A stretch of 64,000 nt of DNA from Tubulanus polymorphus (taxonomy: Eukaryota; Animalia; Nemertea). The stretch is from assembly GCF_964204645.1 (NCBI RefSeq), contig NC_134025.1:13330001-13394000 (forward strand), given 5' to 3'. The translations under genes and the position numbers were made by a program. Positions 1 to 63,412 of this stretch are shown in pieces. How positions within the stretch are numbered: position 1 is the first letter of the stretch; each line of letters starts with the position of its first letter. A model generated the notes under the pieces. It ran no database searches. It was not told where the DNA came from and saw nothing but the letters and a program-made list of their open reading frames with translations.

Positions 1-1409
1 TATGTGCATCACCGTCGTGGATCCGACCCTGGTGGTGAGGATTTTCAGAAAACGATGAAACAAAAAGACTTGGAATTCCGAGAAGCGGTCAATCAGGATA
101 TACAACATTATTTAAATAAATGTGCCAGTTCTGATGAAATGGAGCATTCTGGTTGTAGTCTCGCAGATGCTGGTTCCCAAAAATCCTTAACCGAGGAACC
201 TGTGACGAAAAAACCCAAAGTCCAGTCAGTGGCGAATGCTAAACCGTTGGCGATCAAATCCGATGGAGCTGCAAAATCTTACAAGCATAAATCGTCTACT
301 ACCAAGGGGAAATCTTCCAAGCCATCTCATCATTCCACTGGTGTTGTTTCTCCATCTGGCACCGATCGTAAAACGTTATCGACGGTACACAGATCAAAGA
401 CATCCCCTAGTAAGTCTGTAGTATCAATTGAAAAGAAAGCAGAATCAGATACAAAGAAGACTATTAATGACTGCGTAAGCAAGAAGCCTACTGGTCGAGG
501 CATTGGTAGGGGATCAAAAAGTCCATCTCCAGGAAGGGTGGTACCGTTTTGGGAAAGATTAAGCCCACCGAAAAAGGATCGGTCACCTTCAGTTGAAAGC
601 CCACAAAAGCCAAAAAAGCCACGAACAACTAAGCTACAACACGAAAATCTAAGAAAAGAACTCAAATCAACTGTTCCAATAGATGAATCTGTTGCCAAAA
701 AGGACCAAATGTCTACAAAAAATGAAACTAAATATTCCAAAGAACAATCTTCATCTGCATCTACTCAACCGAAGAAGAATGTGTCGGATGGTAATAAACT
801 AACTCTATCCAGGCAGCGCGCTAAAAGTTCCTCCTCACTTCCTTCAATCGTAAAAGAATTGCAACCGACTGATAAACTCCCGCGTAAGAAATGGGACCCG
901 CCAAAACCGATCAAAACTGTACGCCGCGAAGCATTAAAGGAAAGAGCCAAGAAGCTACTGAAAAAGGGAGATATACCAGTCGAAATTTATCTTCCTCCTA
1001 CTCGTTCCATTCCTGATAAATATAAATCTCATTCCACGGGGGATTTGGATGATGTTCGCACTGAATACTCGGGGGATGCACCCGTATTTTCTGACGATTC
1101 TTTGGATGCCGATAAACCACCAGTAGTTTCGCCATCAAATGAAGACAGATTAGGTTCCGATTCTGAAATGGTTGACAGTCTTGAACAGGAATATTTAAGA
1201 GTAGTAGTCGGTAATAAAAGTGATGATCAGTCGTTTTCTGAAGATTCGTTAGTGGCTGATACAGATAAAAAACTTAGCGGGCTCACAGTAGATACAAATA
1301 TCATCAGTAATGCTATTGGTGGTGCCAATGATGGGATTATAACCGGTGATGTTGTAACAAAGGAGGCGAAACTTCAACGCGTTGAAGACTTTTTACGACA
1401 CATGCCGCA
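1..1409 (+). CDS. STARD9: Internal coding exon (5' end outside window) of a STARD9-like gene; Ser/Lys/Pro-rich low-complexity region
   Basis: Open frame from position 1. Ends CA|gtaagt at 1409/1410 (phase 2); the ORF-track stop at 1411-1413 lies inside the donor site. Phase matches the next exon. Confidence 0.8.
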
Positions 1410-1828
1410 GTAAGTCTTTACAGTTTTGTTGTGATTTCGTATTTGTTACCGTATAGAAAGAAACTTAATTTCTATATAACTACCGGAATTTTACTCCCAT
1501 GGAGTTACTTCAGCAGTTCCTATTGATTGTGTTAATACCGAAGAATAAAATAGTTTAACTGGGAGAAAACCAATTTATTATGAGATCATGCACAACTTTC
1601 TGAACTGAAATAAACTTTTCCAGTCACAGACAAATACATACATGCGTACTTTACATTGGGACGTTATGCACACATTACTTCAAGATATAGCTTTGATATT
1701 CCAGCAAATTTGCGTAGATACGCTCTTATCTATTAGGCTGTTTATTTTTCCATAAGTGAAATTTAATCATTTACTACACAACTCTGCTCTGTCGACAATT
1801 CTTTATAAAAGCATGTCATTGTTTACAG

Positions 1829-1926
1829 TGGAAATGACGACACTTCTCGACGATCAAATCGAAAACACCGTCGCCTAGATCAGGGCGAAATCACAGAACA
1901 TTTCTCTGATGATTCACTCGGATCTG
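1829..1926 (+). CDS. STARD9: Internal coding exon (HGNDDTSRRSNRKHRRLDQGEITEHFSDDSLGS)
   Basis: Acceptor gtttacag|T, donor G|gtaagt. Phase 2 in and phase 1 out link exon 1-1409 to the giant exon. Repeats the FSDDSL motif of the previous exon. Confidence 0.8.
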
Positions 1927-2045
1927 GTAAGTGAAAATCATTTTTGCCTGTAAAATAACGCACGGTATACTATTCATATCTCAAGGTAGAATCTCGAAAG
2001 TTTCTTAATCTATATTGATAGTCTCAGCACTGCATTTCCACACGT

Positions 2046-4168
2046 TTTATCCCACTTAGGACTTTGGACTAATGCGTTCACTTTACTCCCGTTATTCCGT
2101 TCATCTATCTCTCCGTCCGTCTGCTGTTTGTCCATAGACATAATCTAGTTATTTATGAACGTTGTGAAAACGATCCAATGGGCTGTCTTGATATTGGGTC
2201 GGTGCATGTATCTATCCTATCACTATCGACACTTTTTACATATGTTTGGTGTTTTCAATGAAAATTTTGAAGACGCTTTGCTTAATTCCCTCGGGGTTTC
2301 ATACGTATATGTGTCTCACTGGTGCCCATCATGATGAGGAATTGGGTCTATCAGACATAGGTTGTTCGTCCTGTGACTTTTTAGCCCACTTGGGACTTTA
2401 GTCCCAGCGGGCTATTGCGTTCACTTTTCGTCCGTCCGTCCGTCCGTCCGTTCGTCCGTCCGTCCGTCCGTCCGTAGACGGAATCCAGTTATTTTGGGAA
2501 GTTTTGAAGACGCTTCAATGTAATGTCTTGATATTTGGGTTACACATGTATCTACCCTAGACATATCTTCAGTCCAAAAACTGGTCCTGTCAGAATCAAG
2601 ATGGCCGACTGGCAGGCATTGTTGTTCGCCTAAATCAACACTTTTTACACATTTTCGAACTTTTTGAGGGAAATTTTGAAGACGCTTTGATCAATTACCT
2701 TGATCTTTCGGATGTATGTGAATCCCCCAGGGTCCATCAGCATAACAAATATTGGGTCGATCGGACTCACGATGACCTATGACCTTTTTTAGTGTCCAAA
2801 AATGTCAATTTTGGCCCGAATTCTGAGTCCTGTAGTTCCTACTGGTTTGCCATTTCTCATTGCAATTTGTGATGGGTATTCTTTGAAAAGGGATGTTTTA
2901 TACCTGAGACAGGTATTTTTCATCAGCCAATTATGACGCAATTGGCGGCCATCTTGGTGTCATCAGTACTCATTCGTAGGTGGGAAAAAGTTTTTCCACA
3001 TTATATTGATACCTAAGCGTATTTTGTCACCACAATCAATTAGAAACTTGTAGCTCATAAAGTGTTCTATGATTGTGGTGAGTTTCAAGGTCATTGGTTT
3101 TTGTATATGGCCACCAGGGGGCGTTGAATAATACAATATCTTAGTATTTCTATATTATATTCGTATCAATGCATATTTTGTAACCACAATCAATTGCAAA
3201 GTTGTAGCTCATGACATCATCTATGATTGTGGCAAGTTTTAAGGCCATTAGTTATTCTATATGGTCATCAGGGGGCGTTGAATAGTAGAATAACTTAGTA
3301 TTTCCTTATTATATTGGTACCTAGGCATATTTTGTTACCATGATCAATTACAAAGTTATAGTTCGTGACATGTTCTTTGATTATGGTGAGTTTCAAGGTC
3401 ATTGGGTTTTGAATATGGTCACCAGGGGGCGTTGAATAGTAGATTAACTTAGTATTTCCATATTTAATTGGTAACGAGCCATATTTTGTTATCACAATCA
3501 ATTACAAAATCGTAGCATATGACATGTTCTATGATTGTGGTGAGTTTCAAGGTCATTGGTTTTTGTATATGGTCACCAGGGGGCGTTGAATATTGAAATT
3601 GTTATATTGTTGAGCATTTGGAACCTTTTCCCAAGTGGGCATGGTGTCCCTGGACCCCTAGTTTACCATTAAGGTGATTTTTGGCCTTAATTACGAGACT
3701 CGTCATGGTTTGCTATTTTACATTGAAATTCGTAATGACTGTACTTTGACAGGGGATCTTAAACATATCACACGGTTTTTACGATCGATCTATTCTTACT
3801 CAATTAGTGGCCTTCTTAGTCTCATTCGTAGATGTGAAGAAAATGGTTGAGGAAAATATGAACAGGTTTTGGCTTATACTTTCGATATTTAAGAATATCA
3901 TGGAATCAGGGTTATCCAGTTTTTTTGTTCTACCAACCAGGGGATTTAAATATAGAATTATATGACTGTTTCCAATTATATTGATATATATGAATATTTT
4001 GTAAACACATTTAATTGCAGAATTATTTCTCATGATATGTTATTTGATCAACCTCACCAGGGGGCGTTGAATATTGAAATTAGCTGACAGGCTAGTGTTT
4101 CACATAGTGGGCATTACTGAGGGTTTTTCACCAGGGGCGTTGGATAATGAATCCCTGGACCCCTAGTT
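2046..4168 (+). mobile_element. Older, diverged copy of the same HINE-like family, split by the 2381-3661 insertion
   Basis: 2046-2378 matches the element 5' part and 3663-4168 resumes the consensus, ending ccctggacccctag. Confidence 0.65.
2381..3661 (+). mobile_element. DINE-1/HINE-like non-autonomous Helentron element, full length
   Basis: Subterminal inverted repeats GCCCACTTGG / CCAAGTGGGC, 5' hairpin tgggactttagtccca, (CGTC)n tract, internal ~120-bp tandem subrepeats (caccagggggcgttgaata), 3' hairpin ggtgtccctggacccc+tag, T-rich insertion site. Closely similar copy at 52689-54004. Confidence 0.8.
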
Positions 4169-10402: not shown

Positions 10403-13400
10403 ATGGACAGCCAAAATCAAAAGGAAACTCTTGTCGCAGGAGAAAACCTCAAACTCGACCTGTTGATAACAAAGGGCTGAGGAGTTCAGATGAATATATC
10501 ATATCAACAGACAATGATAGCATTTATTCAGAAGATTCTATCAGTCCCAATGAAGACCGAGAGCACCAGATCAGAGCTCGCAGTGCATCTGCTGTTGTAG
10601 ACGGTGCTGTTGGCGGGATTGATATGGAAGCTTTTCCCCGCAGCGCATCGACAAATGCTGTGGACAATGCGCATGGTGACTTTCAAGGGAAAATGAAAGC
10701 TATCCCACCTGAAGAATCATTCCACCTGAGCTGGGATAGCGGTATTGGAACAATACAAAGAGGCCAGTCTGTAGCTGAAACGAATGTTTTTAGTGATGCA
10801 GAAACCTTATTAGGACCAGATGAAAATGATGCCGAGAGGTCGCTGAGAGATGTTGACGATTCCTTAAGATGTACCGCTCTAGAACAAACCGTCGTTAATC
10901 ACTGGTCATCTCTAGATTCTGCCGAAGCTGATGTGGTACGTCCTAGAATCGATGTAGAAGTCGGTGGAGTAGCCCTTCTGCCAGATGAATTGCGTGTAGT
11001 TATACCTACACGAAGACTACCAGAAAATGTGATTGTCACGGATACGGATGTTTGGAATAACACATCTAATGACAGAAATGCATCTCTTTTTGGATATTTG
11101 ACACCAGGAATAGAATCTAGTACAGCTGACATCGATTCCATTACACACGAAGGCATGTCAAATGATACCGTTGTAAGTGAAGGCACCTTCGTAATTGGTT
11201 ATCATCCCGATTATAATGATTGTGTACAGTTGAATAACAAACGGACCTTATCAGATCGGAAACGTGAGGATAGTAAAAGTACAGAACAAATTGACATTTC
11301 AGTACCTAAGGGTGAGAAAAAACAACGAGGGGCAAAATCTGAAGATGTTCATACTGGTGATGAGCATCTATCAGATGAATCCGATCTTGGAAACATTGAA
11401 CCTGACAGAGAAAGATACAGCGACGAGATGATAAGGTGCCAAATTGTACATTTCAAATGTCCCGATCCGTCGTCTCGACGGAATAAACGGGATCCTAATC
11501 GGGATGAAGAGCGGAGACGAGCATTGATCTTTTCAGACTTGTTGAACTTTAACATTCATGATAATTTTCACTCGGAATGTTTTAGTGCTGAAAGTTGGCC
11601 AGCTAATAATGAACAGGGTAGTGGCGAGGCGAGTCGAATACCAGATCTAATTGAAGGCCATAATACGTCTGTAGCTGTTTCGCATAGAATTATCAGTGAG
11701 CGATTATCAAGCGAAGAGCAACCTGGCACGCGAACATTGGATAGACTTGGCCGAGGGTCTCTTGAAGTGTGGTCGACCGATTATGATCATACTCCCGTAA
11801 TGGCCTGTCCGCCACAGCCAATACCCGTGACAGCTTCTCAGAAATTTTTTGATGCAATTACAGAAAGGCTGGATTCGAAGCCATCTAGACTAACATTAGG
11901 TATTACCAAAACCGAGATCTGGGAAGGGAATGGAACTGATGCTGATGACAAAATAGAAGTAACAATGACACCCCCAGGCCAGACATTAGAATCAAATCTT
12001 GTAGCCATTGATATACCATTGTCTTCTCGAAATTATGCGGTCACAGAGTTGTCTCTAGAAAGCCCTGAATTGATTACAATGCATCTGCTAGACCAGCAGG
12101 TCACGGGAAACAATACTGTCCTGTCAATCTCCGAGAATGATTCAGCTACGTCTCAGGACAGAGTCCAACAGGTTCCATGCCGTATTGAGACGTTCGCAAA
12201 TAATGTACATCACGCTGAGAAACAACATGCTACCACGGTTAGGGCAGATCTGCCTTCCCGAATCTGTCCAATATCTAAAGTGCCTTCAATTTTACCAGAA
12301 ACTGCTCCTATTTATAGTATACCCGGAAGCATTGTAACAAGGGAAGGCGTGCAAGTACCATCTACTGGCACTGAATATGCTCACAGTCAGATGAATGACA
12401 TTCTTAATGGACTAGAAATCGCTGCCGTTGAATTATGGTCAAATTATGACGATGGACACTTAACCACGGCTGGAAGCCAACCGGATACAGTTGATGCGCA
12501 TGAAAAAATGATCAGAAGACCAATGCTACTTCAGGTAACTGCCACAAATCGATGGAGTACCGATGGCCATGGAAATATTTTAAAAGGACCAATCGTAGAC
12601 GCGACTACTCATGGTGAGTCATTTACGGTGCCATTGGAGGCAATAATACAAGACATTTGGAAGACGGAAGTACCATTGGGTAAGACTGGTGATACAATGT
12701 GTAGGATGACATCCGAAAATAATAGATTAATCAAGGAGTGCTTAGACTATCTTGATTTCGCTCCATTAGAAACATGGGCCAACTCTGACCCTGATGCAAA
12801 AAGCCTGGTCTGTTTTGAACCACCAAATGACGTTCCTCCCATGCGCTACCAAAATGCAAAAAACCTTGCTGGACTTATTATGGCAGTTTGGGCCACAGAT
12901 GGCTTAGATGTAAAAGGAGAATCTAAGATTGAAGTTGAATATGCATCGGCATTTCACAATGGATCGGTATCACTTTCAAATAATTTCGGAGCAAAAATAT
13001 CAGTGACTGCAGAACCGAGATTCATTAGGCCTCAAACGCTACTTGAAGCAGTTGAAAATGATCTTTATGATGAAACTGCTAAAACATTTTTGGACCCAAG
13101 AACTGACGTCAAATATAATCTAGCGTCTGCCATAACTAGTGGTTTGATAGATGACGAAACTACAAAACTAGCTATTCCCAATGGCGGAAGATTATCCCTG
13201 AAAGATGCTATGACTGACGGACTCGTGGACTCGTGTTCCGGACAGGTATTAGATCAAATGACCGGCAGATTGATTTCTCTGCCAGTTGCTATTGAAAGGC
13301 GGATTGTTGTTTCTGATGTACGAATGAATGAAGACCAACGAGAATTCAAGGGCATGTCTACAGAAAAAATTGAAGAAAATAATGATTTGTCTGACGAAAA

Positions 13401-16400
13401 AAATGTGCCAAAAGGTTACATCCAAAGCAATAATTCTAGCACAACGAGTTTCAAATTACCTGATGTGATGAAAAGTGGAATATTGCGGAATGAATTTACC
13501 AATCCAAAAACAGGAAGGTTAGATGAAGCTATACAGGGTGGGACGATAGATGCTCAACATTTCAATATACTCCTGCCATCTGGGGATACAAATATATTAG
13601 ACATTGCACCTGCCACTGGGCAGGTAGATCCCAAAATGCGGCGAGTAACTGGCCGTGTGGCAGCTTCACACATACCTCTCATGCAAACTGCCACAACCGA
13701 TTTGCATGAAACGCGTTCGCCCATGGTTAATCTAAGCTATGAGGCAACAAGACATATGACTCCAGATAATGCCCATGATGATGCAAAATATGCTAGCATC
13801 ATTCAACCAAAATGTAGATCAACCGATGACATAAAACCTGTAGAAACAGATTTGATTGTTGATAACAACAAATTAACTCAAGAGAGTAAAAAGTTTGATT
13901 CTATGAAGAAAATGGATGTTGAGTGTATAATTAATCCACTAACTGATCAAGTAGGTAGAGATAAATTTGACTTTCCATTGCCAAAAAAACATTTTCTCGC
14001 AGAAGTTCATACAATCACTTTGCTCTTAGAAGAGCTCAGTACTTCACAACTTGAAATTTGGTCGAATACGGATGACTTTGATAGGCCATGCGATGCTTAC
14101 CAACCACCACTTTGTCACGAGCGAAAGGAAATCAAACGTTTTCATAACCCAGCACATCTTGAATCAATAACAATTCGACCTTGGAGTACTGATGGGTTAG
14201 GAACAGAGCATGGTGCTACTGAAATTGAGTACTTGTGTGGAGGAATTATTGGTTATGGAAAACTGGTTCCACCTGAGATACCAATTCCAGATGATGATTC
14301 CGCAAAATCTCAGAAAGTTAGGGCACAAACATGTTTAAAGAAAATCAAAATTTCAAATCGTCTTTGGAAGTCTGCCATCGATATCTGGACTAATCTGTCA
14401 GCAATTCCGAAACCTTTATCGGTTTCCCATCCTAGGAGAAAAATTGGCCCATGTCCAAATAAAGTTTTGTTAAAAAAACTAAGAATTTGCATCACCGATG
14501 AATGGCAAAATGATGGAATAGCAAATACAGAAATAACTATGGAGTCTCATTTTATATCCCCGAGTAAAAGAGGAATTTCATCTTGCCGAAGACGAAATAT
14601 TGACGACAGAGATATTGGGCCTGCAGACTACTTGCAGGGTAGTGAATCCGAATCCATATATGGACCTGATGGAAATATGGATATCTCAGCACAACTTAAT
14701 CATTCTATACAAAAAGGAGAATTTGATATTGCACCTATTGATTTATGGTCATCCGTACATCCAAGCGAACCAGTTTCCTATCATTCACCATCAAATGGTC
14801 AGCCATACAGTAAAAAGGCGTTGAAGAGATGGTTCACACTTATGTCTAAGCAGCTCCCTATTTGGCATACCGAGGGTTTAGATCATGGTTTTCATAAAGT
14901 GGAGATTGAATATGATACCCCTGACAGTTTTGGAAAGTACGTTTTGCCCTTGACAGACATTGATGTCACGGTGATGGACAGTTGCAAAAATTCTGATCCC
15001 AATGAATGTCAAAAAATATCATTTAAAAATGATGACTTAAACTTTAAACTCGCGCCCATTGATGTGTGGTGTACATCAATTCGGGATAAAGATCTCTCGG
15101 TAAATGTCCCCAATGGTTTAAGGAGGAAGACACGATCTTTCTCAAGACGAAGGCTGATGGAACGTTCGGCCAATGAAGTGTGGCATACTGATGGAATAGA
15201 CCGAGCGGATTATCTTTTTGAAGTAAGCTCTATAACTTCTTATGATAAGGGCACAGTAAAAGTGCACCAGCCGCGGTTGCATAGTATAGGAGAACGAGAT
15301 GAATGTTCGTCAAATATATATACATTGGATATGGTGAACCAGCCAGATAGTTTGATACTAAGTGCGTTGGTGGATCAAGGCTTGTTGATACCACCAGTGC
15401 CAGAAGATATAGCTGTCAAAGAAACTAAAGGAATAGCATGTGGTACACCGGTGAAAGAAGAAGAGAATGAAATAACCATGTTTTCAAAACATGCAGACTC
15501 TGTGGGTTTTGATTCACGCAATATACATGCTCATCAGGATATTCCAATGACTAAGGTAAGTAACATTTCACAATCATTAAACATTCGTATTAACGATCAG
15601 GTATTCAAGGCATCAGCTGGTAGCTTCGACGGTGAAGGTTCAACCAACTCCCATATTGAGAATATGCCTACATCAGTTCACTTAGCTGAAAATGATGATG
15701 TCCAGGAATTGAGCAGTCCGCAGGAAAGTGAACCAGGCGCAGTTAGTGACCTGACTTTCCTAGACGATAACAAGGCAGGTTCTAGTAGCATTTGTGCAAC
15801 TCTGCAAAAAGGTGATATGGGCAGAGAATTGTACGATGAATGTAAAGATATCATAATGAAAGATACCAGAGGGAAAATAATCACTGCACCGCATTATTTG
15901 ACTCAACAAGCTAATTTAGATAAAACAGCAGGAGAAACTGCCACACCAGAGCGTTCGAACGTATATGATTCAAAAAAACGATATGGCGTAAACCAGAAAG
16001 ACATCAGCGAAACATTATCGAATATGTCTGTACGCATGTCAAAATCTTGGAATGACATTTCCATGCTCAACGAAAACGATGTCAGTTCAAATGATTATGC
16101 AAAAAATGGAAAGCTGTTTGCAAACACACCTAAGGTGCATGGATGTACAGGTACACTTCCACCGATTTTTGAACTAAACAGTTTTACCGATGAAGACACA
16201 TTTGATCAATATGGTTCAAGAATGCATAGAAAATATACTCAATCAGATCCTGGTATCGACAACGCTGGAGTTAATATCCCGGAACGTTCATATTCAGAAA
16301 CAGATCTATATGCATTTGACAATTACCTTATGTTAAACGAGCTATCACAGTCATCTGATAGTATAATGTACATTTTCCTGGGTACGAGGTCTTCTACCAC

Positions 16401-19400
16401 AAAAAGCACCGATGATATATGTGATAACTTGGAAAATCAATTCGAAAAGTTGGGTGCCACGCCTACAACTAAGGAACATTCTGCATTTCCAAAGTCAGTT
16501 TTGAAGAGCAAGGATTCAACAGCCATTAAGATACTAACGGAAGTCAAAGGAGAAAGACCATCTGTATATCATCCAGGATTGGTAATGAGGAAAAGGAGAT
16601 TGGCCAAAAGCAAAAGGCCGAAGAGTTATCATTTTGATAGACGTATGATTCGAGATTTCGAGGGGGAAAATCACCACGAGGAACAGAGAAAATCATTTTA
16701 TGAACAAGACCTAGCTGCAACACCGGAATATGGAAGAAAAGGCAAGGAATGGACGCCTGCAACAGAAAGTGGAAAAGATCTAGCTGAGAAACAAAGATGT
16801 TCAATTGAGCAATCTTTAGATGTCGCTTCTGGTCAAGCAAACAAACATATATTTTCACTGTCGGGCGATGTTAACAATAGCGCTGTTTCATCCGATGTAA
16901 CGAAACTGGAGCCAATGATGTTGGAAGAAACTCTCGGCACATTCGTAGACCCGCAAACACGCAGCAAGATGAAACTCGCTGATGCGGTCGCCACTAGTTT
17001 GATTGACGGAACGTCGACTAAAGTAAAGACGCCGTCCGGAGGGTCGACAACACTTTCTCAAGCAATTTCTACCGGTATCGTCGATGGCCAATCAGGAAAG
17101 GGGTTTAGTCCATCGACCGGAAAACTGGTTGACTTGTCACAAGCCATTGACTCGGGAGTGGTGAGTACCTATTCGAAACCGAAGATGACGCTGAATGAAG
17201 CCGTTGAACGGGGTCTTTACGATAGTGATGACAATACAATCATCGACCCAAATACTGGTAGCAAAGTAAAATTACTATCGGCCATCTCCGACGGATTGAT
17301 CGACGCCACTTCGTCAGCGATAACTGCATCAGATGGCAGCGTCGTACAATTAAATCGAGCCCTTTCCGATGGTCTTGTCGACGCACACACTGGCAACGTT
17401 ATCGACGAAACTACAGGCAAATCCGTCGCACTGTCGGATGTTCTCACTAATAAACCGGCGACAGTTCCAAAAAACCTAAGTATCGAAGAAGCTATCGAGA
17501 TTGGTGTTTTCGACGCAAAAAGAAACGCATTTATCGATCCATTAACCGGAAAAGATATGACGCTAGCAGAGGCCGTACAACACGGATTGGTCAGCGCTGA
17601 AAGATCACACGTGAAAACATCTGATGGTGATTTCATGACCGTTGGCCGAGCTATTGCAACTGGTAGTATCGACGGCGAAACAGGAATTGTTAACGACCAA
17701 AAGACAGGCCAGGCAGTGTGCCTCGCTGAAGCTGTCTCCAAAGGATTGGTTAGCTCAGTCGAAGCGGTTGTTCCACCACTTAAATCGCTGACCGTCGACG
17801 AAGCAGTAAAAAGGGGTCTTTACGATGAAAAGACCAACACTTTCGTGGACCCCATCAACGGCAGTCGGATGAGTTTGGTTTCGGCTATTACCAGTGGGAA
17901 AATCGACGCGGAGGCGAGCAAAGTAAAAACGCTGACCGGAGACGTGTCACTCAATGAAGCTCTTTCATCCGGAATCGTAGATGCCACAACTGGAAAGGTT
18001 GCCGACCAAACTACCGGACAGATAATTTCACTGTCGGATGCTGTTAACAATGGCGCTGTTTCATCCGATGTTAGGCAACCGGAACCAATGACGTTGGATG
18101 AAGCGCTCGGCAAAGGTATTTACGATGCCAAATCGAACACAGTGATCGATCCAAACAGCGGAAATCGCTTGTCAATCATTGATGCGGTGAAAGAAGGAGT
18201 GATTGACGGAAAATTGAGTAAACTGAAACTGGCAACTGACAGCGATCGGGAAATAAGTCTTCAAGACGTCATTAACACAGGCATGATAGACCCCGATTCC
18301 GGTAAACTGATCGACCCTAACAGTGGACAAGTTATCGATGTCGAGCAAGCATTACAAACAGGCGCGAAACTAGCCGATACAACGCAAGTACGTGGAATTA
18401 CCATTGACGAAGCCATTTCTGCTGGATTGATGGACGGAAACACATTCGTAGATCCACAAACGGGCAGAAAGATGAACCTCGCTGATGCGGTCGCCACTGG
18501 TTTGATTGACGGAATGTCGAAAAAAGTAAAGACGCCGTCCGGAGGGTCGACAACACTTTCTCAAGCAATTTCTACCGGTATCGTCGATGGCTTATCAGGA
18601 AAGGTGTTTAGTCCATCGACCGGAAAACTGGTTGACTTGTCACAAGCCATTGACTCGGGAGTGGTGAGTACCTATTCGAAACCGAAGATGACGCTGAATG
18701 AAGCCATTGAACGGGGTCTTTACGATAGTGATGACAATACAATCATCGACCCAAATACTGGTAGCAAAGTAAAATTACTATCGGCCATCTCCGACGGAGT
18801 GATCGACGCCACCTCGTCAGCGATAACAGCTTCAGATGGCAGCGTCGTTCAATTAAATCGAGCCATTTCCGATGGTCTTGTCGACGCACACACTGGCAAC
18901 GTTATCGACGAAACTACAGGCAAATCCGTCGCGCTGTCGGATGTTCTCACTAATAAACCGGCGACAGTACCAAAAAACCTAAGTATCGAAGAAGCTATCG
19001 AGATTGGTGTTTTCGACGCAAAAAGAAACGCATTTATCGATCCATTAACCGGAAAAGATATGACGCTATCAGAGGCCGTACAACACGGATTGGTCAGCGC
19101 TGAAAGATCACACGTGAAAACATCTGATGGTGATTTCATGACCGTTGGCCGAGGTATTGCAACTGGTAGTATCGACGGCGAAACAGGAATTATTAACGAC
19201 CAAAAGACAGGCCAGGCAGTGTGCCTCGCTGAAGCTGTCTCCAAAGGATTGGTTAGCTCAGTCGAAGAGGATGTTCCACCACTTAAATCGCTGACCGTCG
19301 ACGAAGCAGTAAAAAGGGGTCTTTACGATGAAAAGACCAACACTTTCGTGGACCCCATCAACGGCAGTCGGATGAGTTTGGTTTCGGCTATTACCAGCGG

Positions 19401-46400: not shown

Positions 46401-49400
46401 CGTAGACCCCATCAACGGCAGTCGGATGAGTTTGGTTTCGGCTATTACCAGCGGTAAAATCGACGCGGAGGCGAGCAAAGTAAAAACGCTGACCGGAGAC
46501 GTGTCACTCAATGAAGCTCTTTCATCCGGAATCGTAGATGCCACAACTGGAAAGGTTGCCGACCAAACTACCGGACAGATAATTTCACTGTCGGATGCTG
46601 TTAACAATGACCCTGTTTCATCCGATGTTAGGCAACCGAAACCAATGACGTTGGATGAAGCGCTCGGCAAAGGTATTTACGATGCCAAATCGAACGCAGT
46701 GATCGATCCAAACAGTGGAAATCGCTTGTCAATCATTGATGCGGTGAAAGAAGGAGTGATTGACGGAAAATTGAGTAAACTGAAACTGGCAACTGACAGC
46801 GATCGGGAAATAAGTCTTCAAGACGTCATTAACACAGGCATGATAGACCCCGATTCCGGTAAACTGATCGACCCTAACAGTGGACAAGTTAACGATGTCG
46901 AGCAAGCATTACAAACAGGCGCAAAACTTGCCGATACAATGCAAGTACGTGAAATTACCATTGACGAAGCCATTTCTGCTGGATTGATGGACGAAAACAC
47001 ATTCGTAGATCCACAAACGGGCAGCAAGATGAACCTCGCTGATGCGGTCGCCATTGGTTTGATTGACGGAACGTCGACAAAAGTAAAGACACCGTCCGGA
47101 GGGTCGACAACACTTTCTCAAGCAATTTCTACCGGTATCGTCGATGGCCAATCAGGAAAGGTGTTTAGTCCATTGACCGGAAAACTGGTTGACCTGTCAA
47201 AAGCCATTGACTCGGGAGTGGTGAGTATCTATTCGAAACCGAAGATGTCGCTGAATGAAGCCGTTGAACGGGGTCTTTACGATAGTGATGACAATACGAT
47301 CATCGACCCAAATACTGGTAGCAAAGTAAAATTACTATCGGCCATCTCCGACGGATTGATCGACGCCACCTCGTCAGCGATAACTGCTTCAGATGGCAGC
47401 GTCGTACAATTAAATCGAGCCCTTTCCGATGGTCTTGTCGACGCACACACTGGCAACGTTATCGACGAAACTACAGGCAAATCCGTCGCACTGTCGGATG
47501 TTCTCACTAATAAACCGACGACAGTACCAAAAAACCTAAGCATCGAAGAAGCTATCGAGATTGGTGTTTTCGACGCAAAAAGAAACGCATTTATCGATCC
47601 ATTAACCGGAAAAGATATGACGCTAGCAGAGGCCGTACAACACGGATTGGTCAGCGCTGAAAGATCACTCGTGAAAACATCTGATGGTGATTTCATGACC
47701 GTTGGCCGAGCTATTGCAACTGGTAGTATCGACGGCGAAACAGGAATTTTTAACGACCAAAAGACAGGCCAGGCAGTGTGCCTCGCTGAAGCTGTCTCCA
47801 TAGGATTGGTTAGCTCAGTCGAAGCGGTTGTTCCACCACTTAAATCGCTGACCGTCGACGAAGCAGTAAAAAGGGGTCTTTACGATGAAAAGACCAACAC
47901 TTTCGTGGACCCCATCGACGGCAGTCGGATGAGTTTGCTTTCGGCTATAACCAGCGGTAAAATCGACGCGGAGGCGAGCAAAGTAAAAACGCTGACCGGA
48001 GACGTGTCACTCAATGAAGCTCTTTCATCCGGAATCGTAGATGCCACAACTGGAAAGGTTGCCGACCAAACTACCGGACAGATAATTTCACTGTCGGATG
48101 CTGTTAACAATGGCGCTGTTTCATCCGATGTTAGGCAACCGGAACCAATGACGTTGGATGAAGCGCTCGGCAAAGGTATTTACGATACCAAATCGAACAC
48201 AGTGATCGATCCAAACAGCGGATATCGCTTGTCAATCATTGATGCGGTGAAAGAAAGAGTGATTGACGGAAAATTGAGTAAACTGAAACTAGCAACTGAC
48301 TGCGATCGGGAAATAAGTCTTCAAGACGTCATTAACACAGGCATGATAGACCCCGATTCCGGTAAACTGATCGACCCTGATAGTGGACAAGTTATCGATG
48401 TCGAGCAAGCATTACAGACAGGCGCGAAACTAGCCGATACAATGCCAGTACGTGGAATGACCATTGACGAAGCCATTTCTGCCGGATTGATGGACGAAAA
48501 CACATTCGTAGATCCACAAACGGGCAGCAAGATAAACCTCGCTGATGCGGTCACCACTGGTTTGATTGACGGAACGTCGACTAAATTAAAGACGCCGTCC
48601 GGAGGGTCGACAACACTTTCTCAAGCAATTTCTACCGGTATCGTCGATGGCCAATCAGGAAAGGTGTTTAGTCCATCGACCGGAAAACTGGTTGACTTGT
48701 CACAAGCCATTGACTCGGGAGTGGTGAGTACCTATTCGAAACCGAAGATGACGCTGAATGAAGCCGTTGAACGGGGTCTTTACGATAGTGATGACAATAC
48801 GATCATCGACCCAAATACTGGTAGCAAAGTAAAATTACTATCGGCCATCTCCGACGGATTGATCGACGCCACCTCGTCAGCGATAACTGCTTCAGATGGC
48901 AGCGTCGTACACCTAAATCGAGCCCTTTGCCATGGTCTTGTCGACGCACACACTGGCAACGTTATCGACGAAACTACAGGCAAATCCGTCGCGCTGTCGG
49001 ATGTTCTCACTAATAAACCGGCGACAGTACCAAAAAACCTAAGCATCGAAGAAGCTATCGAGATTGGTGTTTTCGACGCAAAAAGAAACGCATTTATCGA
49101 TCCATTAACCGGAAAAGATATGACGCTAGCAGAGGCCGTACAACACGGATTGGTCAGCGCTGAAAGATCACACGTGAAAACATCTGATGGTGATTTCATG
49201 ACCGTTGGCCGAGCTATTGCAACTGGTAGTATCGACGGCGAAACAGGAATTATTAACGACCAAAAGACAGGCCAAGCAGTGTGCCTCGCTGAAGCTGTCT
49301 CCAAAGGATTGGTTAGATCGGTCGAGGCGGTTGTTCCACCACTTAAATCGCTGACCGTCGACGAAGCATTAAAAAGGGGTCTTTACGATGAAAAGACCAA

Positions 49401-52400
49401 CACTTTCGTAGACCCCATCAACGGCAGTCGGATGAGTTTGGTTTCGGCTATTACCAGTGATAATCTCGACGCGAAGGCGGGCAAAGTAAAAACGCTGACC
49501 GGAGACGTGTCACTCAATGAAGCCCTTTCATCCGGAATCGTAGATGCCACAACTGGAAAGGTTGTCGACCAAACAAAGTTATCTACATCCTTATCTGAAC
49601 CGCATTTCATTACGAATTTTCACCGTGATGGCTCTACTCAGACGGATAGCATTACTCTATTGCCTCTTGTTTCTGACTACATTTCTTTGAAGGAATGTAA
49701 TGATATTGCTGTTCAAACATTTTGTACTGATACTGTATTGGGTCCCTTCTTCGAGGACAAAAACCTCATTGTAACGAGTGATCCTTCGCCCCTTTCCTTA
49801 CGAGGCAATCGGGAACAGTGCGAACAATACCATTATGTCCTGCAAAAAGATACTTTAATTACAAATCTTATCGACGATGCAACCCAAACTGATTTCTCTT
49901 ATACAGATAGCTCGGACGAAAGTGATTTCTTCGATGACGATGAATATGGAAACATTTGTGAAGGATTTAAATTCGAGAACACCAAACTTCAGAATATTGG
50001 TATACAAGCGGATTCGGCATCTACACAAACATTTTCTGTTGACATTAATGCCGCACTTACCAACGATGAAGTCGAAGATTGTGCTCAGGCATACAATCTT
50101 TCTTTGAAAACGGCTTTACGAGAACATAAGCCGGATGAGAATAATGATGGATGTATTGAATTGAGAGCTTATTCCCTTTCGTCTCTTGGCGATTCAGGAA
50201 TGTCTAGTTCTTTTGTGACATCTCATTCTGATATTTCTCGTTCCTCACAGCTGTCTACTTATGACATTAAAGTTAACCCATCAGTCCATCCCCCTTTAAT
50301 TCTGAGTCCCGTTGCTGAAAAGAAAAATGCGCTGGTTTCAGCGAAAAACGCCGCGATGTCTAATGCTGATTGGGGATCATCACATATGACTCCTAATATG
50401 ATGCACTCACTTTCCGAGAGTTCTCCCGAAAATGCGTCCAATGTGGCCATTCTACCTGAAGAAATCATTGCTTCATCTGAATTGACAAAATGTCGTAGCG
50501 AACCAGCATGTGAAAGATCTTGTTCTAAGGAAAAAGTGATAGGAGCTGAGAATTCTTACATATTGCCTGAATACACAGAGAAGACATCTGACGTGGCAGT
50601 GGAAGTATTCATTGAGACGCCGAAAATGTTTCCAGTTGCTACACAGACTGATTTCAATATTGATCCTATTGAATCTCATAATTCCCAAGACGAACTGTGC
50701 GAATCACTAAGTGGTGTCACACGAACAGATGTCAATACGTATATAAAAGATCGTATTCGCGATTCTCACGGGGATTTGTCAGAGTTGGTTCTACTTCCTC
50801 CTGAATATCTTAACGTTGTTGATATCGATGAACTTCTTGGAATGTTAGACGACGACGAATATAATGATAGCCACATTGAAACTCCTGAAATCATGCATGT
50901 TATGTCAATGCCTGACTTGAATGACCTTGATGACGTTGCTGGATTCAAAATAAATCTGACTAATGATCAAAGACCTACTAAGTCGGCCACAATGATTCAA
51001 AAAAGAAAGAAGATTTACTGTGATCTAGATATTCCCAACTATAAATTTGGAGTTGATGGGTTTGACGAACTTAAGGCTGAGCATCGAAGGATGTTAGATT
51101 TATTGAAGAAAACTGAGGCGGACCACCAAATTATGAAAGACAAGCGTGATCAAATTCGTTCGTCACATTCCACGCAACAAAGAACCGATGATGCAGTATC
51201 GCCATCGACGCCATTGTCAAGTTCCAGTAGTCCCGATTCGGTGATACTGTCAGAGAAGTATACTCCACAGAACAGGAATTTCCATATGAAACAAGAACTA
51301 ACCAATGCATTTAGAAAGCCCGATTGTGCAACGGACATTAGACGGACTAATGGATCGTATGAACTCTACAGTGAACATACACGTAATGACACTTATACGA
51401 CGAGCTTCACTGATGGACAGGAAGGTCAACAGCGACAAAGTTGGGAAAACCAAACGTATCCTATTGGAAAAACAGATTTAAATGATGCAGAATCAAACAC
51501 GTCGATGTCTCGAAGATTTAAAACGGTTATGGGTCACATAGAAAGGTCTTCAGATTACCAAAAGAAGCAAAGTACTGGACTGAAAACAGGCATGAACATA
51601 ACATCGAGTGAGCGAACTAGAGAATGGACGAATTATCTTCCCTCTGATAGTTTGTCAATCAAAACTGACAACCAAAAGTTACACGATATGACCAGTAACT
51701 TGGAAGCGGTTTACACCAACCAAAGGAGCAACAATTTTAGTATTGCGGATGGAGTCCCAAGCAACGCTGATGATGTTTGTCAAAATGACCTAGACCAGCA
51801 AGAGGAATTGACTTCAACAAAATCAGAGGCAGATGAAAATATATATGCTAGTCTAGCAAGAAGGTTAATGGAAAGTAAGCAGGCTGATACTAATTTGGGT
51901 ATGGATGATACTATGAGCACGTATGCAGATGACTGCACCCAAACTGGCGATCCTAACGTTGGTTTAGATGAATCAATTGAGACTGATTCAGCAATCCAAA
52001 ACCAGCTGGATAAACTCGTGCAAGAACGGACGCATATAATTGAGTTACTAGGGCATGATTACGCTCCGTCGCGAGTATGGACTGAACTGGTTGAGGCCCA
52101 GTTGAATTATGGCATTGGACAGACCGATTCTTTACTGGAAAGCTTAGACCAATGTGTTGATTTTGATCCTAATTTACTTAGTGGTCGACGAGCACGTACG
52201 GAAGACAATCTTCATATCATTACTAGATCATACCTGTTCGATTATCGACAACGATTAGAAAATTCCAAGAAAGATATTGAAGATCAAATTCAATCATTGG
52301 AGCGAATGAAAAAGAAGAAGCACAAACGGCCATCATTCAATCCTATGAAACTGCGCAGACAACTGCAGTTTGAAGCATTTAAATTAGAAAGAACTCGAAA

Positions 52401-52676
52401 TCAAGTAGTTGAACAAGCAAAAGGGCGAATATTCAATGCACGCATTCGCAGTCACACGTCAACTCCTAGAAGTGATGAATGCGATGATCTGTCAACGACA
52501 ACAGACTCGTTGCATTCAAGGCACGATAGATTTATGAGGCCCCACAACCACGTTGAGTATCTTGTTAACCTTAGACGTTCTCTCGTAGCATCAAGTTTGG
52601 AAAAAGAAAAACCTCAAAGACCTTCACCCAACCAAGGAAACTTAACACCCAAGCGTACTAGCAACAGTCTTGAAAG
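10403..52676 (+). CDS. STARD9: Giant 42,274-bp coding exon: unique N-part, ~32.6-kb plectin-like repeat array, acidic/coiled-coil C-part
   Basis: Lies within the uninterrupted ORF 10369-52707. Acceptor gtttctccacag|AT (phase 1, G+AT=Asp) and donor AG|gtatat (phase 2). ELVEAQLNYGIGQTDSLL (~52084-52137) and HVEYLVNLRRSLV resemble, from memory, conserved blocks in the STARD9 tail. Confidence 0.85.
13030..13310 (+). repeat. Solitary diverged plectin-like module upstream of the array
   Basis: TLLEAVENDLYDETAKTFLDPRTDVKYNLASAITSGLID...LSLKDAMTDGLVDSCSGQVLDQMTGRLISLPVAIERRIV follows the same four-motif pattern as the array modules. Confidence 0.8.
16939..49575 (+). repeat. Coding tandem array, 1503-bp unit (501 aa), ~21.7 copies, plectin/plakin-repeat-like
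   Basis: The same landmark recurs at 17820, 19323, 20826 ... 49383 (22 times, exactly 1503 apart). The motif L-x-E-A-[IV]-x-x-G-L-[YI]-D...D-P-x-[TS]-G is typical of plectin repeats. Confidence 0.95.
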
Positions 52677-54083: not shown

Positions 54084-54311
54084 ATCACGCGATTGGGAAC
54101 TAGACTCGTCTATAACAGACTTTTCATTTGGAGACATATCAAACGTCTCGTCACTTCATGATGAACCTATGCGGGTCCTTGAAGCTTGCCAGCGGCAACG
54201 CCTCCAAAGCCAGGCTCAAATTACGGAAGCAAGGGAAAAACTTCGTGACCTGCCACCAGTACTCAGATACAAACGGACGAAAGAAAAATCAAAGTCAGCC
54301 CATTCTTTAAG
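54084..54311 (+). CDS. STARD9: Internal exon, probable coiled coil (LEACQRQRLQSQAQITEAREKLR)
   Basis: Acceptor ttattgtag|A, donor AG|gtgagg. Phase 2 in and out; open frame. Confidence 0.8.
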
Positions 54312-55073: not shown

Positions 55074-55173
55074 GGACAGCCGGAGATTAGAGGAGGAAAA
55101 CTATCATCATCGTCACCGATTTAATACTTCTACTCAGGAATTACGATACGCACGTCCACAAGCATTAGAACAG
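55074..55173 (+). CDS. STARD9: Internal exon (DSRRLEEENYHHRHRFNTSTQELRYARPQALEQ)
   Basis: Acceptor ctttgtgtag|G, donor CAG|gtactt. Phase 2 in, phase 0 out. Confidence 0.7.
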
Positions 55174-55932: not shown

Positions 55933-56006
55933 GTCATAGATAGCGAGATAGATGCGTTACGAAAAAATCATGAAAATGAAGCCTTAGGAAGGTCGTCATA
56001 CAGGAG
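55933..56006 (+). CDS. STARD9: Internal exon ([24 protein letters not shown])
   Basis: Acceptor actcttag|GTC, donor AG|gtattc. Phase 0 in, phase 2 out. Confidence 0.7.
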
Positions 56007-56016
56007 GTATTCTGAC

Positions 56017-56430
<414 letters not shown>

Positions 56431-56433
56431 ACC

Positions 56434-56478
56434 GTCAAGAGATGCAGCCTCTAGACGGTTTTCCCCTGGTGATCGGAA

Positions 56479-56571
<93 letters not shown>

Positions 56572-56618
56572 AGTTCCGATCACCAGGGGAAAACCGTCTA
56601 GAGGCTGCATCTCTTGAC
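56434..56618. repeat. Perfect 49-bp inverted repeat flanking a (TA)n spacer
   Basis: gtcaagagatgcagcctctagacggttttcccctggtgatcggaactta (56434-56482) is the reverse complement of 56570-56618. Confidence 0.95.
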
Positions 56619-58000: not shown

Positions 58001-58263
58001 TCACCACTACCGACGCAGTACCACCGACTATCTGACACCATTTTCGTCCACCTTTGGACATTCACTTCACCGCACATTCGATGGAAGCGAACGAGATATT
58101 TACACTTTGGGCTTGAATAGTCTTAGTCGGAGTACCTACGCGTTGGCATCAAGCATCAGTCGACCACCATCAGAATACAGAAGTAATAGTAGTGCACGAA
58201 ATGGAAACCACCCATTGCCCAAAATAATGGACTCGGGCAATATTTTCCGTGCTAAAAGCCTAG
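58001..58263 (+). CDS. STARD9: Internal exon (HHYRRSTTDYLTPF...RAKSL); frame continues to a stop at 58380-58382 if the donor is not used
   Basis: Strong acceptor ttttctttcag|T (phase 2). Candidate donor CTAG|gtgacc (phase 1) fits the exon at 60288. Confidence 0.6.
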
Positions 58264-59319
58264 GTGACCTAGATCCTTATGTGGTTGCCACGAAATTTGC
58301 GTACAGTCGTCCAATAAATGCGGAAATGATTAAAAGACGCCTTGAGCAAAGATATCGCTTCGATCCTGGCAGCGAAATTTAATCGGAATATAACACATTC
58401 ACCAAAATTTGTTCCTGTACGATGTGCAAACGTTTTAATTTTTTTTTCTGATTTGCAAATACGAATAACTAATGGCTTATAATCTACGTGGATTGTTCTA
58501 CCGGATTTTCCTTTTCTTTTTGAAATACCGCTATTCCCTTATCATTGAACTGTGAACCGAAAAACTTTGTAAAATGTATAGCGTGCGTGACCTTAATTCA
58601 TATAAGTGATAAAAAATTTCGTTTAAATGCGTAATTCTAAGAACTCTTTGAACGGAATAACTGACAATAATACCTGACGATGGAAAACAAAGAATTCCTG
58701 TGAAACGGATATTATTTGCAATACCGTTAACTGATTCCACGTAAAAGGATCCATGCCACTTGAAAACGATGGAGCTTAATATACAGGCGTTGACGGTTGA
58801 TATACCAGGCATAAATGTGAGTTTGATTTATCGTTTTTCGATTTAATGTGAATGTTATGAAATTAATACAGATAGATCTGCTCTGTACTGCGCTGTGTTA
58901 TAGGGCAGGGGTACATTGTAATAATCAACAGGTAGAATTACTCTCAGAAACATATCACATATTTCGAGACATTTTGATAATTGTATATTGTATTCAGGAA
59001 GTGCAAATATACGAACAGGAATTGACAGATATAGGAAAAAAAGGTGGTAGTTTCCACGTAAGGAGTATGAAGCATGAACAATGTATCATACGTATGGAGC
59101 ATCATTTAACTAATTTTCTTTTGTGCAATCATTCATTGCTTTAAGAATACTTTTGGTACTTGTCCCATGCTTTTCTAAAAGTCTATATGATTCTTAGCCC
59201 CGATGACGATCATTTTTATGTTGTATAGCGTATATATGTAAATACATGTAATTTTCACCATTGCCATAAGACACATTTCTTTACATGGAATAGGGGTTAC
59301 CCAGCTTTTTTCTCCAAAC

Positions 59320-59912: not shown

Positions 59913-60287
59913 TTTGTCTATACGTATCTTAACATTGATTTAACTCAAAATTCAGAAATCAAGTCTTAGTCAGGTCTAGACGTCTCATTTTCATTCATGA
60001 CTAAGCATGAATTTAGATATCTAGAATTTATGTAAGCACATCGTGTGGTGGGGCTATAGATCTTAAAGTTCACGGTCGTAAACACTTGACACTGAAAGTA
60101 CTGCGATATTATCAAACTGTTTTTGTACATATCCGGTCTTCCGACTAGGTCACTTTACAGCACTTGCTTATTGATATTCATGGGTTATATCATATTCATA
60201 ACAACAAAAGCACTGCATGTAGACAGCACTGGTCTCATTGGCATTAAAGTCAACGCACAACCAACGGGAAATAACATTTCATTTTAG

Positions 60288-60577
60288 ACATTCGTGATTA
60301 TCCGTCGAATTTTCTACGACATTTTCAGAGTTTTCCCGTGGTAGAAAATTTGTTTTCCTTGGATGGATTTCCGTGGACTAGACACGACGAATCCCTATTA
60401 ATCTCCACCGGATGTTCGGTGGATTATGATCGTAGTGAAAAAATGTTATCGAGTACGATGGACGTAGGGGACAACGAAACTGATAGCGACTACGTATCCC
60501 AACATTCGACTTTAGAATCTTCTTTAACAAGTTCATTCGTTTCTACAATGACGGACGATACTGATTATCTCTCAATG
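60288..60577 (+). CDS. STARD9: Internal exon, Ser/Asp-rich linker before START domain
   Basis: Acceptor catttcattttag|AC (phase 1), donor ATG|gtaagc. Overlaps ORF 60338-60607. An alternative acceptor at 60328/60329 is possible. Confidence 0.6.
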
Positions 60578-60778: not shown

Positions 60779-60830
60779 CTTGGATCTGTCGAAACCTGTA
60801 TTTCGGAATATATGGTTCAAGAACCTATTG
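60779..60830 (+). CDS. STARD9: Small internal exon (LGSVETCISEYMVQEPI)
   Basis: Acceptor tttgtttattcag|CTT, donor G|gtgagt. Phase 0 in, phase 1 out; needed to keep frame. Confidence 0.7.
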
Positions 60831-60929: not shown

Positions 60930-60991
60930 TAAATAATAAGATCCACTATCAAACAATAGGAAATCAAGCAGCGGCAGATCTCTTAGCACAA
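60930..60991 (+). CDS. STARD9: Exon encoding the likely first helix of the START domain (NNKIHYQTIGNQAAADLLAQ)
   Basis: Acceptor ctcttttacccag|TA, donor CAA|gtaagt. Phase 1 in, phase 0 out. Confidence 0.7.
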
Positions 60992-61383: not shown

Positions 61384-61608
61384 GTTCATTCAATTAGAGA
61401 TTACGATCTAGAAAAACCAAATCCGAAATGGAGTATGGGCAATTGGAGATACTTCTATACAGACAATGAAGTGACCGTATTTCAAACTCGTAAAAAAGAA
61501 CGCGTGTGTAAAATCGCGGGTGTTGGCATAATCAAAGCGAACATTGACTTTGTTTACGATATTGTCAGGGATCCTTTTCGAAGATATCAATATGACAGCA
61601 TGGCAAAG
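61384..61608 (+). CDS. STARD9: START domain exon (GNWRYFYTDNEVTVF...GVGIIKANIDFVYDIVRDPFRRYQYDSMAK)
   Basis: Acceptor aattttag|GTT, donor AAG|gttagt. W...G.G.I...R..YD pattern typical of START domains. Confidence 0.88.
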
Positions 61609-61951: not shown

Positions 61952-62074
61952 AAAATGCGCGTCGTTGAACACGTAAATAATACGACTCGGGTGATACACA
62001 TATTAATGGAGACCACTCGCTGTCTATTGAAACAAGCACGAGATTTCTGCTACGTTTCTACTGAGCGAATCGAG
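61952..62074 (+). CDS. STARD9: START domain exon (KMRVVEHVNNTTRVIHILMETTRCLLKQARDFCYVSTERIE)
   Basis: Acceptor tgtttgtag|AAA, donor GAG|gtatga. Contains the hallmark RDF motif in a CLLKQARDFC context. Confidence 0.9.
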
Positions 62075-62950: not shown

Positions 62951-62983
62951 TTCATATCAGGTAACCATTTTTATCATTTCTAG

Positions 62984-63064
62984 GATGGCGGAGTACATGT
63001 AGTAGCTGGCAGATCTGTTGAACATGCTAATTGCCTTCCGTCTGAAAAAATACCCAGACTAAAG
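62984..63064 (+). CDS. STARD9: START domain exon (DGGVHVVAGRSVEHANCLPSEKIPRLK)
   Basis: Acceptor catttctag|GAT, donor AAG|gtatat. SV.H...P.....R motif of START. Confidence 0.88.
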
Positions 63065-63141
63065 GTATATTAAACTCTTGTCCAGCCTGTTGAAAATAGA
63101 ACTCATTCGATAACATGTTTTATTTATTCTTATTATTGTAG

Positions 63142-63216
63142 GCACATGCCAGTGGTTTTGTACTTGAACCATGCAAAGGAAATCCACGAAAAACAAAAGT
63201 TATCTATTTGCTGCAG
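63142..63216 (+). CDS. STARD9: START domain exon (AHASGFVLEPCKGNPRKTKVIYLLQ)
   Basis: Acceptor ttattgtag|GCA, donor CAG|gtaatg. SGFVLEP...TKVIY pattern. Confidence 0.9.
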
Positions 63217-63313
63217 GTAATGACTTTTTGAAATAATACTGGTTCAATCATGGCACCGTCGACTTTGAGACTTGTGAAGTTCAGTTGAAAAGTGTTTTTA
63301 TCTTATCTTTCAG

Positions 63314-63412
63314 GTTGACCTGGGAGATTTGCCGGAAACTATAGTAAAACTAGTTCTCAAGAAACAACCAATGGCAATTTCACGGCTCAGGAACCTAATC
63401 GAGAAAATCTGA
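63314..63412 (+). CDS. STARD9: Terminal exon, START C-terminal helix (VDLGDLPETIVKLVLKKQPMAISRLRNLIEKI*)
   Basis: Acceptor tatctttcag|GTT, stop TGA at 63410-63412. QVDLG.LP...KKQP.AI.RL recalls the STARD9 C-terminus. Confidence 0.9.
   Translation, partial: VDLGDLPETIVKLVLKKQPMAISRLRNLIEKI

Follow-up and report, generated by a model that had tools for sequence, protein, structure and literature searches.

We analysed a window of 64,000 nucleotides (nt) from the nemertean Tubulanus polymorphus (contig NC_134025.1, forward-strand positions 13,330,001 to 13,394,000), which holds the tail region of what is likely a KIF16A-type kinesin-3 gene with a very large tandem array of plakin-type modules in one exon, followed on the same strand by exons for a START domain. 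A single open reading frame (ORF) on the + strand is stop-free from 10366 to 52704 (14,113 codons), and a chain of GT-AG exons in a single frame can be assembled that starts at position 1, ends with the stop codon at 63410-63412, and encodes 15,150 amino acids (aa). An earlier note on this DNA had read the whole chain as one giant protein, in which about 110 plectin-like modules were joined to a C-terminal START domain. The finding described here is instead a variant of a known kinesin, real and apparently lineage-specific, and most likely not a START chimera. The features of the window are as follows.

1..1409, + strand: internal kinesin-3 exon (KIF16A-type gene) that runs past the window edge; encodes 469 aa of low-complexity tail in an open frame, with a GT donor
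1829..1926, + strand: small exon with the first half of the N-anchor motif; AG/GT borders, in frame, with the orthologue motif profile crossing the junction
10403..52676, + strand: giant exon of 42,274 nt in one frame; an ORF of which both ends match orthologues
10403..10560, + strand: N-anchor motif, a basic stretch and an acidic serine-rich stretch, common to KIF16A orthologues
11746..15260, + strand: seven dispersed copies of an unnamed motif of ~70 aa with two tryptophans (leave-one-out profile E 1.5e-9 to 0.025)
13024..13323 (approximate), + strand: isolated, diverged plakin-type module (Pfam Plectin, 36.5 bits)
16924..49597, + strand: tandem array, 21.7 x 1503 nt, 109 modules, by self-similarity and module profile
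51964..52620, + strand: C-anchor, a conserved helical/coiled-coil region of KIF16A/STARD9; profile matches include named STARD9
54084..54311, + strand: exon with a second conserved coiled-coil motif, top among six-frame pieces (E 1.3e-7)
55074..55173, + strand: probable small exon; the frame fits its neighbours and the acceptor score is weak
55933..56006, + strand: small exon, by frame and by a short motif common to the Lamellibrachia, Lingula, and Batillaria orthologues
58001..58382, + strand: probable last exon of the kinesin gene; terminal motif at ~58300-58350, stop at 58380-58382
58769..58816, + strand: first coding exon (ATG) of a separate START gene; 16/16 residues equal to the start of XP_074648391.1, then a GT donor
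60329-60577, 60779-60830, 60930-60991, 61384-61608, 61952-62074, 62984-63064, 63142-63216, 63314-63412, + strand: remaining START-gene exons; 321/321 residues equal to XP_074648391.1

The array encodes 10,891 aa and repeats with a unit of 1503 nt, or 501 aa, as shown by comparing the sequence with itself at a 501-residue lag. Each unit contains five modules of 97-104 aa. A module profile run on the spliced model gave 111 matches, comprising the 109 in the array, the isolated module at ~13024-13323 (26-46% identical to the array modules), and one weak partial match. In the other five frames the array has 153-804 stops. The 21 full units are 96-99.9% alike; they differ pairwise by 2-140 nt, no two are identical, and none carries an indel. 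Variants occur in blocks common to neighbouring and distant units, which is the pattern expected if unequal crossing-over has been at work. The five modules within a unit are 29-46% identical to each other and retain the fold pattern; their divergence is old, and the 22-fold amplification of the five-module block would be recent. The copy number given is that of the assembly. Since the longest exact repeat in the array is 1,666 nt, a length that long-read assembly can resolve, we consider the array unlikely to be an artefact.

To describe the variation among units, we counted distinct single-base variants, leaving out 17 multi-base codon variants. The 169 variants comprised 56 synonymous, 113 missense, and 0 nonsense changes, compared with 44, 119, and 5.1, respectively, when the same mutation spectrum was placed at random. 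Both the deficit of stops (P 0.004) and the excess of synonymous changes (P 0.02) depart from this expectation. Given the lack of stops and indels and the near-neutral rate of missense change, the reading frame is kept while the amino acids drift almost freely.

On the Pfam Plectin profile (PF00681; cut-off 20.5 bits), one 501-aa unit scored 150.2 bits and one module 50.3 bits, although the best stretches span only 17-25 of the 39 profile positions. Compared by sequence with solved structures, the unit was closest to desmoplakin, plectin, and envoplakin (E 3e-6 to 0.01). It is most closely related to plakin repeat proteins of invertebrate type (22-33% identity over the unit); among them are Mytilus DST and one that combines CH, spectrin, and SH3 domains. 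Module matches covering at least 80 profile positions made up 246 of 435 in 29 invertebrate-type proteins and 0 of 75 in 32 vertebrate-type plakin records. Judged by these matches, the modules are of the ~100-aa, four-quarter type of invertebrate spectraplakins. Further, in a tree of 198 modules, from which six near-duplicate proteins had been excluded, five of six window modules grouped together with a support of 0.94, which suggests one capture followed by local divergence.

The same module, 26-41% identical, is found in Drosophila Shot-PH, Mytilus DST, and other invertebrate proteins, and the four-quarter form is general in invertebrate repeat regions of spectraplakin type (P0002-P0030). 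According to the available part of 10.1101/122010, the Shot repeat region is ~3,000 aa long, is encoded by one large exon, localises to adherens junctions, and presumably does so without binding intermediate filaments. In Shot-type proteins this region lies between the plakin domain and the spectrin rod and consists of diverged copies, whereas here the modules form 10,891 aa of a kinesin tail, in 22 near-identical blocks. Epiplakin (EPPK1) is likewise a single-exon tandem array of plakin type with copy-number variation, as far as the accessible text of PMC8782857 describes it. Epiplakin, which binds keratins, is built solely of canonical plakin repeat domains, while the Tubulanus protein would carry non-canonical modules in a kinesin orthologue.

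AlphaFold2 models of a single module reached a pLDDT of 86.8 and a pTM of 0.72; for three modules the values were 82.5 and 0.54, with loose relative placement. The predicted module consists of four quarters of ~25 aa (period 24-27 aa), each with one hairpin and one short helix. Foldseek ranked desmoplakin, periplakin, and envoplakin first, with TM scores of at most 0.26, and returned no match at E<=0.001 for either predicted model. VIA-align found no match with Z>=2 among 202 chains nor, in a wide search with the single module only, among 48,161 chains. The predicted fold is thus one without a match among solved structures, which is no proof of a new fold.

The canonical plakin repeat is 38 aa long with two helices, 4.5 repeats form a domain, and vimentin is bound by a basic groove (PMC4782060, available part). 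Such domains (desmoplakin 1lm5, 1lm7, and 5dzz; envoplakin 4qmd; plectin 2n03) lead the rankings by sequence and by Foldseek and have the hairpin-helix motif in common with the modules studied here. In contrast to their 38-aa repeats with two helices, the predicted models show ~25-aa quarters with one helix, and do not conform to the canonical architecture. The unit is also acidic (44 K+R, 71 D+E, pI 4.5), a net charge that could still leave a local basic patch on a module. Because the modules are non-canonical, acidic, and unmatched in fold, binding to filaments in the canonical manner, which the earlier note had suggested, is unsupported.

The identity of the host gene comes from the regions that flank the array. 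A profile built from the C-anchor (51964-52620), aligned with its first match (P0001), matched 107 proteins among 1.84 billion representatives. Thirty of these were looked up by name, and the named ones were lophotrochozoan and rotifer proteins and vertebrate STARD9. Four mollusc records with the C-anchor have a kinesin motor and an FHA domain, which lie 1,100-2,300 aa upstream of the N-anchor. Of 79 long orthologue records, 24 matched the N-anchor profile, as did the spliced Tubulanus model at E 3e-13; across the junction 1926/10403 the motif scored 36.1 bits spliced, compared with 27.5 bits for the exon alone. The conserved tail motifs of KIF16A/STARD9 (N-anchor, C-anchor, and second coiled coil) are present and in order, and in several orthologues of the giant exon both anchors lie within one ORF. 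The exon at 1..1409 matched no Pfam family and gave a weak match (E 0.006) to the Lottia orthologue upstream of its N-anchor. On this evidence the host is likely the KIF16A-type kinesin-3 gene of Tubulanus polymorphus. The window contains no CH, spectrin, SH3, plakin-domain, or GAS2 sequence by Pfam or tblastn, and the flanks of the array are KIF16A.

The distance between the two anchors ranges from 1,620 to 5,459 aa in 23 records and is 13,871 aa here, or 2,980 aa without the array. Plakin-type modules were found in none of the 147 KIF16A/STARD9-type records, and the longest protein returned by any search had 6,957 aa. Unrelated tandem arrays, with periods of 11-103 aa, occur in 21 of the 79 long records (13 representatives and 8 cluster mates); as these comparisons indicate, the host exon is a hot spot of repeat expansion that takes up repeats readily. 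Examples with unrelated arrays in the same exon are P0063, P0067, P0068, P0071, P0080, P0088, P0089, and P0098. Given that the array lies between two KIF16A anchors, that the tail would have a normal length without it, and that modules are absent from all 147 records, the array is taken to be inserted in a tail exon, prone to repeats, of a KIF16A-type kinesin-3, and appears to be specific to this lineage. The giant exon carries the conserved anchors and is therefore unlikely to be optional.

The mollusc, annelid, and brachiopod orthologues of Ylistrum (XP_060080344.1), Pinctada (KAK3094106.1), Saccostrea (XP_062569884.1), Potamilus (KAK3608656.1), Lingula (XP_013386503.1), and Owenia (CAH1792277.1) likewise have an N-anchor, a C-anchor, a terminal motif, no START domain, and a giant repeat-prone exon. 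They differ in having no plakin modules, and their arrays consist of short, unrelated repeats. The only other named nemertean match, Lineus longissimus XP_064623703.1 (P0159), has a weak C-anchor and neither module, START domain, nor terminal motif; it could be an orthologue that has diverged, a paralogue, or an incomplete gene model. The two-tryptophan motif at 11746-15260 had no Pfam match, and weak single copies of it are present in the bivalve orthologues P0085, P0089, and P0082.

The kinesin product encoded inside the window, if it ends at 58382, has 14,854 aa (1.57 MDa). In motor-bearing orthologues the N-anchor begins at residue 1,703-2,902, compared with 486 here, so that 1,200-2,400 residues are likely missing upstream. 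The full protein would then have ~16,100-17,300 aa, end at 58382, and lack a START domain. A tblastn search of the window for the kinesin motor and FHA was empty. Several statements of the earlier note were borne out by these results. Its count of ~110 modules over ~10,900 aa agrees with ours (109 plus the isolated one), and its assignments of the repeats to the plakin family and of the host to KIF16A/STARD9 are supported by the Pfam scores and by the match of both exon ends to invertebrate orthologues, four of them with a motor. It had also proposed a lineage-specific giant protein, in keeping with the apparent lineage specificity of the array, and had described the motor as not visible in the window, and its product size of more than 15,000 aa would hold once the missing N-terminus is added. 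The junction 1926/10403 that it proposed gained support from the spanning N-anchor motif, and its exon 54084-54311 from the coiled-coil motif of orthologues. Its exon list was incomplete, lacking 55074-55173, 55933-56006, and the first START exon at 58769-58816.

We then examined the 3' end of the locus. The START exons scored 99 bits on a vertebrate STARD9 profile, and Pfam START scored 66 bits on XP_074648391.1, the identical RefSeq protein. The domain scored 76-97 bits against STARD9 and 33-38 bits against STARD1/5/6; as far as such scores, which are not a tree, can tell, it is of STARD9 type. RefSeq labels XP_074648391.1 as STARD6-like, though it scores far closer to STARD9. Taken individually, the START exons had no significant Pfam or PDB match, and Atlas gave a weak START lead for one of them. 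XP_074648391.1 (Tubulanus polymorphus, 337 aa) is identical to the START exons at 321 of 321 residues, and its first 16 residues come from the ATG exon at 58769-58816, which is spliced to 60329. This ATG lies 387 nt downstream of the kinesin stop on the same strand.

A START domain was found in none of the 16 named invertebrate records, several of which are partial, with all four motor-bearing ones included; among all 147 records it was present in 23, every named one of them from a vertebrate. In 7 of the 16 invertebrate orthologues a short shared terminal motif precedes the stop. The regular expression behind this count was written after the window had been seen, and the fair test is a profile made from those seven orthologues only: its best match among 2,390 six-frame pieces of the window lies immediately ahead of the stop codon, 58380-58382, with E 0.0067. 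In the earlier model, array and START exons are connected by the junction 58263/60288 alone, which is in frame and would remove this conserved motif. Its donor scored 2.9, the weakest of all, with the 14 other donors at 3.4-9.4, and its acceptor a normal 5.4.

Thus, the in-frame GT-AG joining and the START domain described in the earlier note are real, but the junction that would connect them is unconfirmed, and neither annotation nor homology makes START part of the polypeptide that contains the kinesin tail. Because the START exons belong to a separate RefSeq protein with its own first exon, and because a terminal motif and a stop lie upstream of it, a START fusion is most likely not real. 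A gene of their own is the most likely assignment for the START exons, as the RefSeq model and the C-termini of the orthologues both indicate, and at this level the chimera of plakin repeats and START proposed before is not sustained; a separate START gene is one of the results that the earlier note had named as refuting it. A minor fused kinesin-START isoform may exist.

Vertebrate STARD9 consists of a motor, an FHA domain, a disordered tail, and START, and is located at the pericentriolar material, which it stabilises (PMC12692329, available part). The vertebrate STARD9/KIF16A proteins XP_057881496.1, XP_015206425.2, and XP_043929476.1 likewise have the C-anchor and the second coiled-coil motif, followed directly by START of the same subtype; this domain is fused in them, whereas in Tubulanus it belongs to a separately annotated gene. 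They are 4,400-5,050 aa long and have no plakin modules; the worm tail is about three times longer. The vertebrate linker motif that precedes START had no match in the N-terminus of the Tubulanus START gene. The stand-alone STARD9-type gene may represent the unfused state of vertebrate STARD9 or the product of a split.

The explanation that we favour, with moderate confidence, is that of a KIF16A-type kinesin-3 in which 109 captured spectraplakin-type modules serve as a long beaded spacer, next to a separate START gene. A module of spectraplakin (Shot/dystonin) type would have been captured into the kinesin tail exon and have diverged into at least six variants, after which the five-module block would have been amplified ~22-fold by unequal crossing-over, whose pattern is present in the array. 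The giant exon is presumably translated, because its frame is kept; each ~100-aa module is predicted to fold as a small domain of its own, made of four hairpin-plus-helix quarters; and the protein would end at 58382 without START. The array would then act as length, a spacer or tether between a presumed N-terminal motor and the C-terminal coiled coils. This is the simplest reading, for a place at which other lineages have other repeats, and the earlier note's option of a very long spacer fits best; it is also the least certain step. With an assumed span of 4-5 nm per domain, 109 domains would extend over about 0.4-0.55 micrometre.

A number of observations weigh against parts of this account. 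The use of the giant exon and the position of the 3' end are predicted from sequence and from a RefSeq model. The match to the terminal motif is modest, the motif is absent from 9 of the 16 named invertebrate records, and the START exons can be reached in frame by two joins (58263-60288 and 55173-60329). The motor lies outside the window, and motor and FHA are taken from the orthologues. In the module tree, module m1 falls outside the window clade, and the sequences compared did not include the donor spectraplakin of Tubulanus polymorphus. Array-bearing orthologues longer than 6,957 aa may be missing from the searched libraries, and the amino acid changes in the array are near neutral.

The array could instead be a multivalent binding surface that ties the kinesin to adherens junctions, membranes, or filaments and makes it a motor-bearing cytolinker. 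The modules are of the invertebrate spectraplakin type and are predicted to fold, unlike a plain low-complexity linker; the frame of the array is kept; the Shot repeat region is found at adherens junctions without intermediate filaments (10.1101/122010, in part); and in epiplakin, function is already known to depend on how many repeats there are (PMC8782857, in part). We nevertheless regard a binding surface as unlikely, as the unit is acidic where canonical domains use a basic groove (PMC4782060, in part), its predicted structure matches no canonical plakin repeat domain, amino acid variation among copies is near neutral, and unrelated repeats occupy the same place in orthologues. Still less probable is that the array has no role, being a recent expansion tolerated as nearly neutral, a rarely used exon, or a copy number inflated by assembly. 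The synonymous excess is small and missense change near neutral, the copies are 96-99.9% alike, and in other lineages the same exon has grown by repeats of unrelated kinds. However, there is not one stop or indel over 32.7 kb, the five modules are old and retain the fold pattern, the conserved anchors in the same exon make optional use unlikely, and inflation of copies is difficult to reconcile with units of which no two are identical and a longest exact repeat of 1,666 nt.

Two other alternatives concern the gene model. The main or a substantial isoform could run from motor through array to START, as in vertebrate STARD9, with RefSeq having split one gene. In-frame joins are available, acceptor 60288 is normal, a STARD9-type START domain lies directly downstream on the same strand, and several of the invertebrate records are partial or single-exon and could not reveal START. 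But XP_074648391.1 has its own ATG exon and donor (58769-58816), a terminal motif and stop lie beyond the weakest-scoring donor at 58263, START is absent from all 16 named invertebrate records, motor-bearing ones included, and the vertebrate pre-START linker is unmatched here; we find a fused isoform of this kind rather improbable. Finally, a mis-assembly or a real rearrangement might have brought a piece of a spectraplakin gene into the kinesin locus, as the type of the repeats would allow. This is very improbable: both boundaries of the array are in frame with KIF16A and the flanks sum to a normal tail length, a related module lies 3.6 kb upstream in unique sequence, CH, spectrin, and SH3 were not found in the window, and the spectraplakin repeat regions fetched for comparison are far more diverged internally than the array.

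If translated, the gene would encode a motor of 16,000-17,000 residues with two-thirds of its tail made of cytolinker modules acquired by capture. It would be a clear example of the transfer of a folded domain between cytoskeletal families, with amplification in the manner of epiplakin. Plakin-type repeats are known from plakins and spectraplakins. We found no literature that places them in a kinesin or treats them in nemerteans, or that describes STARD9 orthologues without START or a fusion of the STARD9 gene, in a search whose scope excluded most subscription journals; the available parts of PMC4300403 and PMC9145010 contain nothing on this architecture. The ~100-aa module, common to Shot-type regions of unknown mechanism, offers a clean unit with an unmatched predicted fold that could be expressed and solved. 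Further, KIF16A orthologues of invertebrates end before any START domain, and in Tubulanus a START gene of STARD9 type begins 387 nt beyond the kinesin stop; whether vertebrate STARD9 arose by fusion (or START was lost elsewhere by fission) thereby becomes directly testable. A bolder interpretation, which is possible but doubtful, is that this ~1.7-1.8 MDa kinesin-3, with its captured module of unsolved fold amplified 109-fold, is the first motor-bearing plakin-type cytolinker, able to bridge some half a micrometre between microtubules and either junctions or filaments, and that the adjacent START gene preserves the unfused pre-STARD9 state.

The introns contain repeats of their own. A satellite-like repeat of 130-154 nt occurs at 2989-3592, 6967-7381, and 53690-53935 and in scattered copies, and is preceded by a (CGTC)n run at 2429-2475 and 52736-52858, an association that suggests a composite interspersed element. 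A (TA)n tract of ~550 nt lies at 56019-56568, and the short stretch that interrupts it recurs inverted just downstream.

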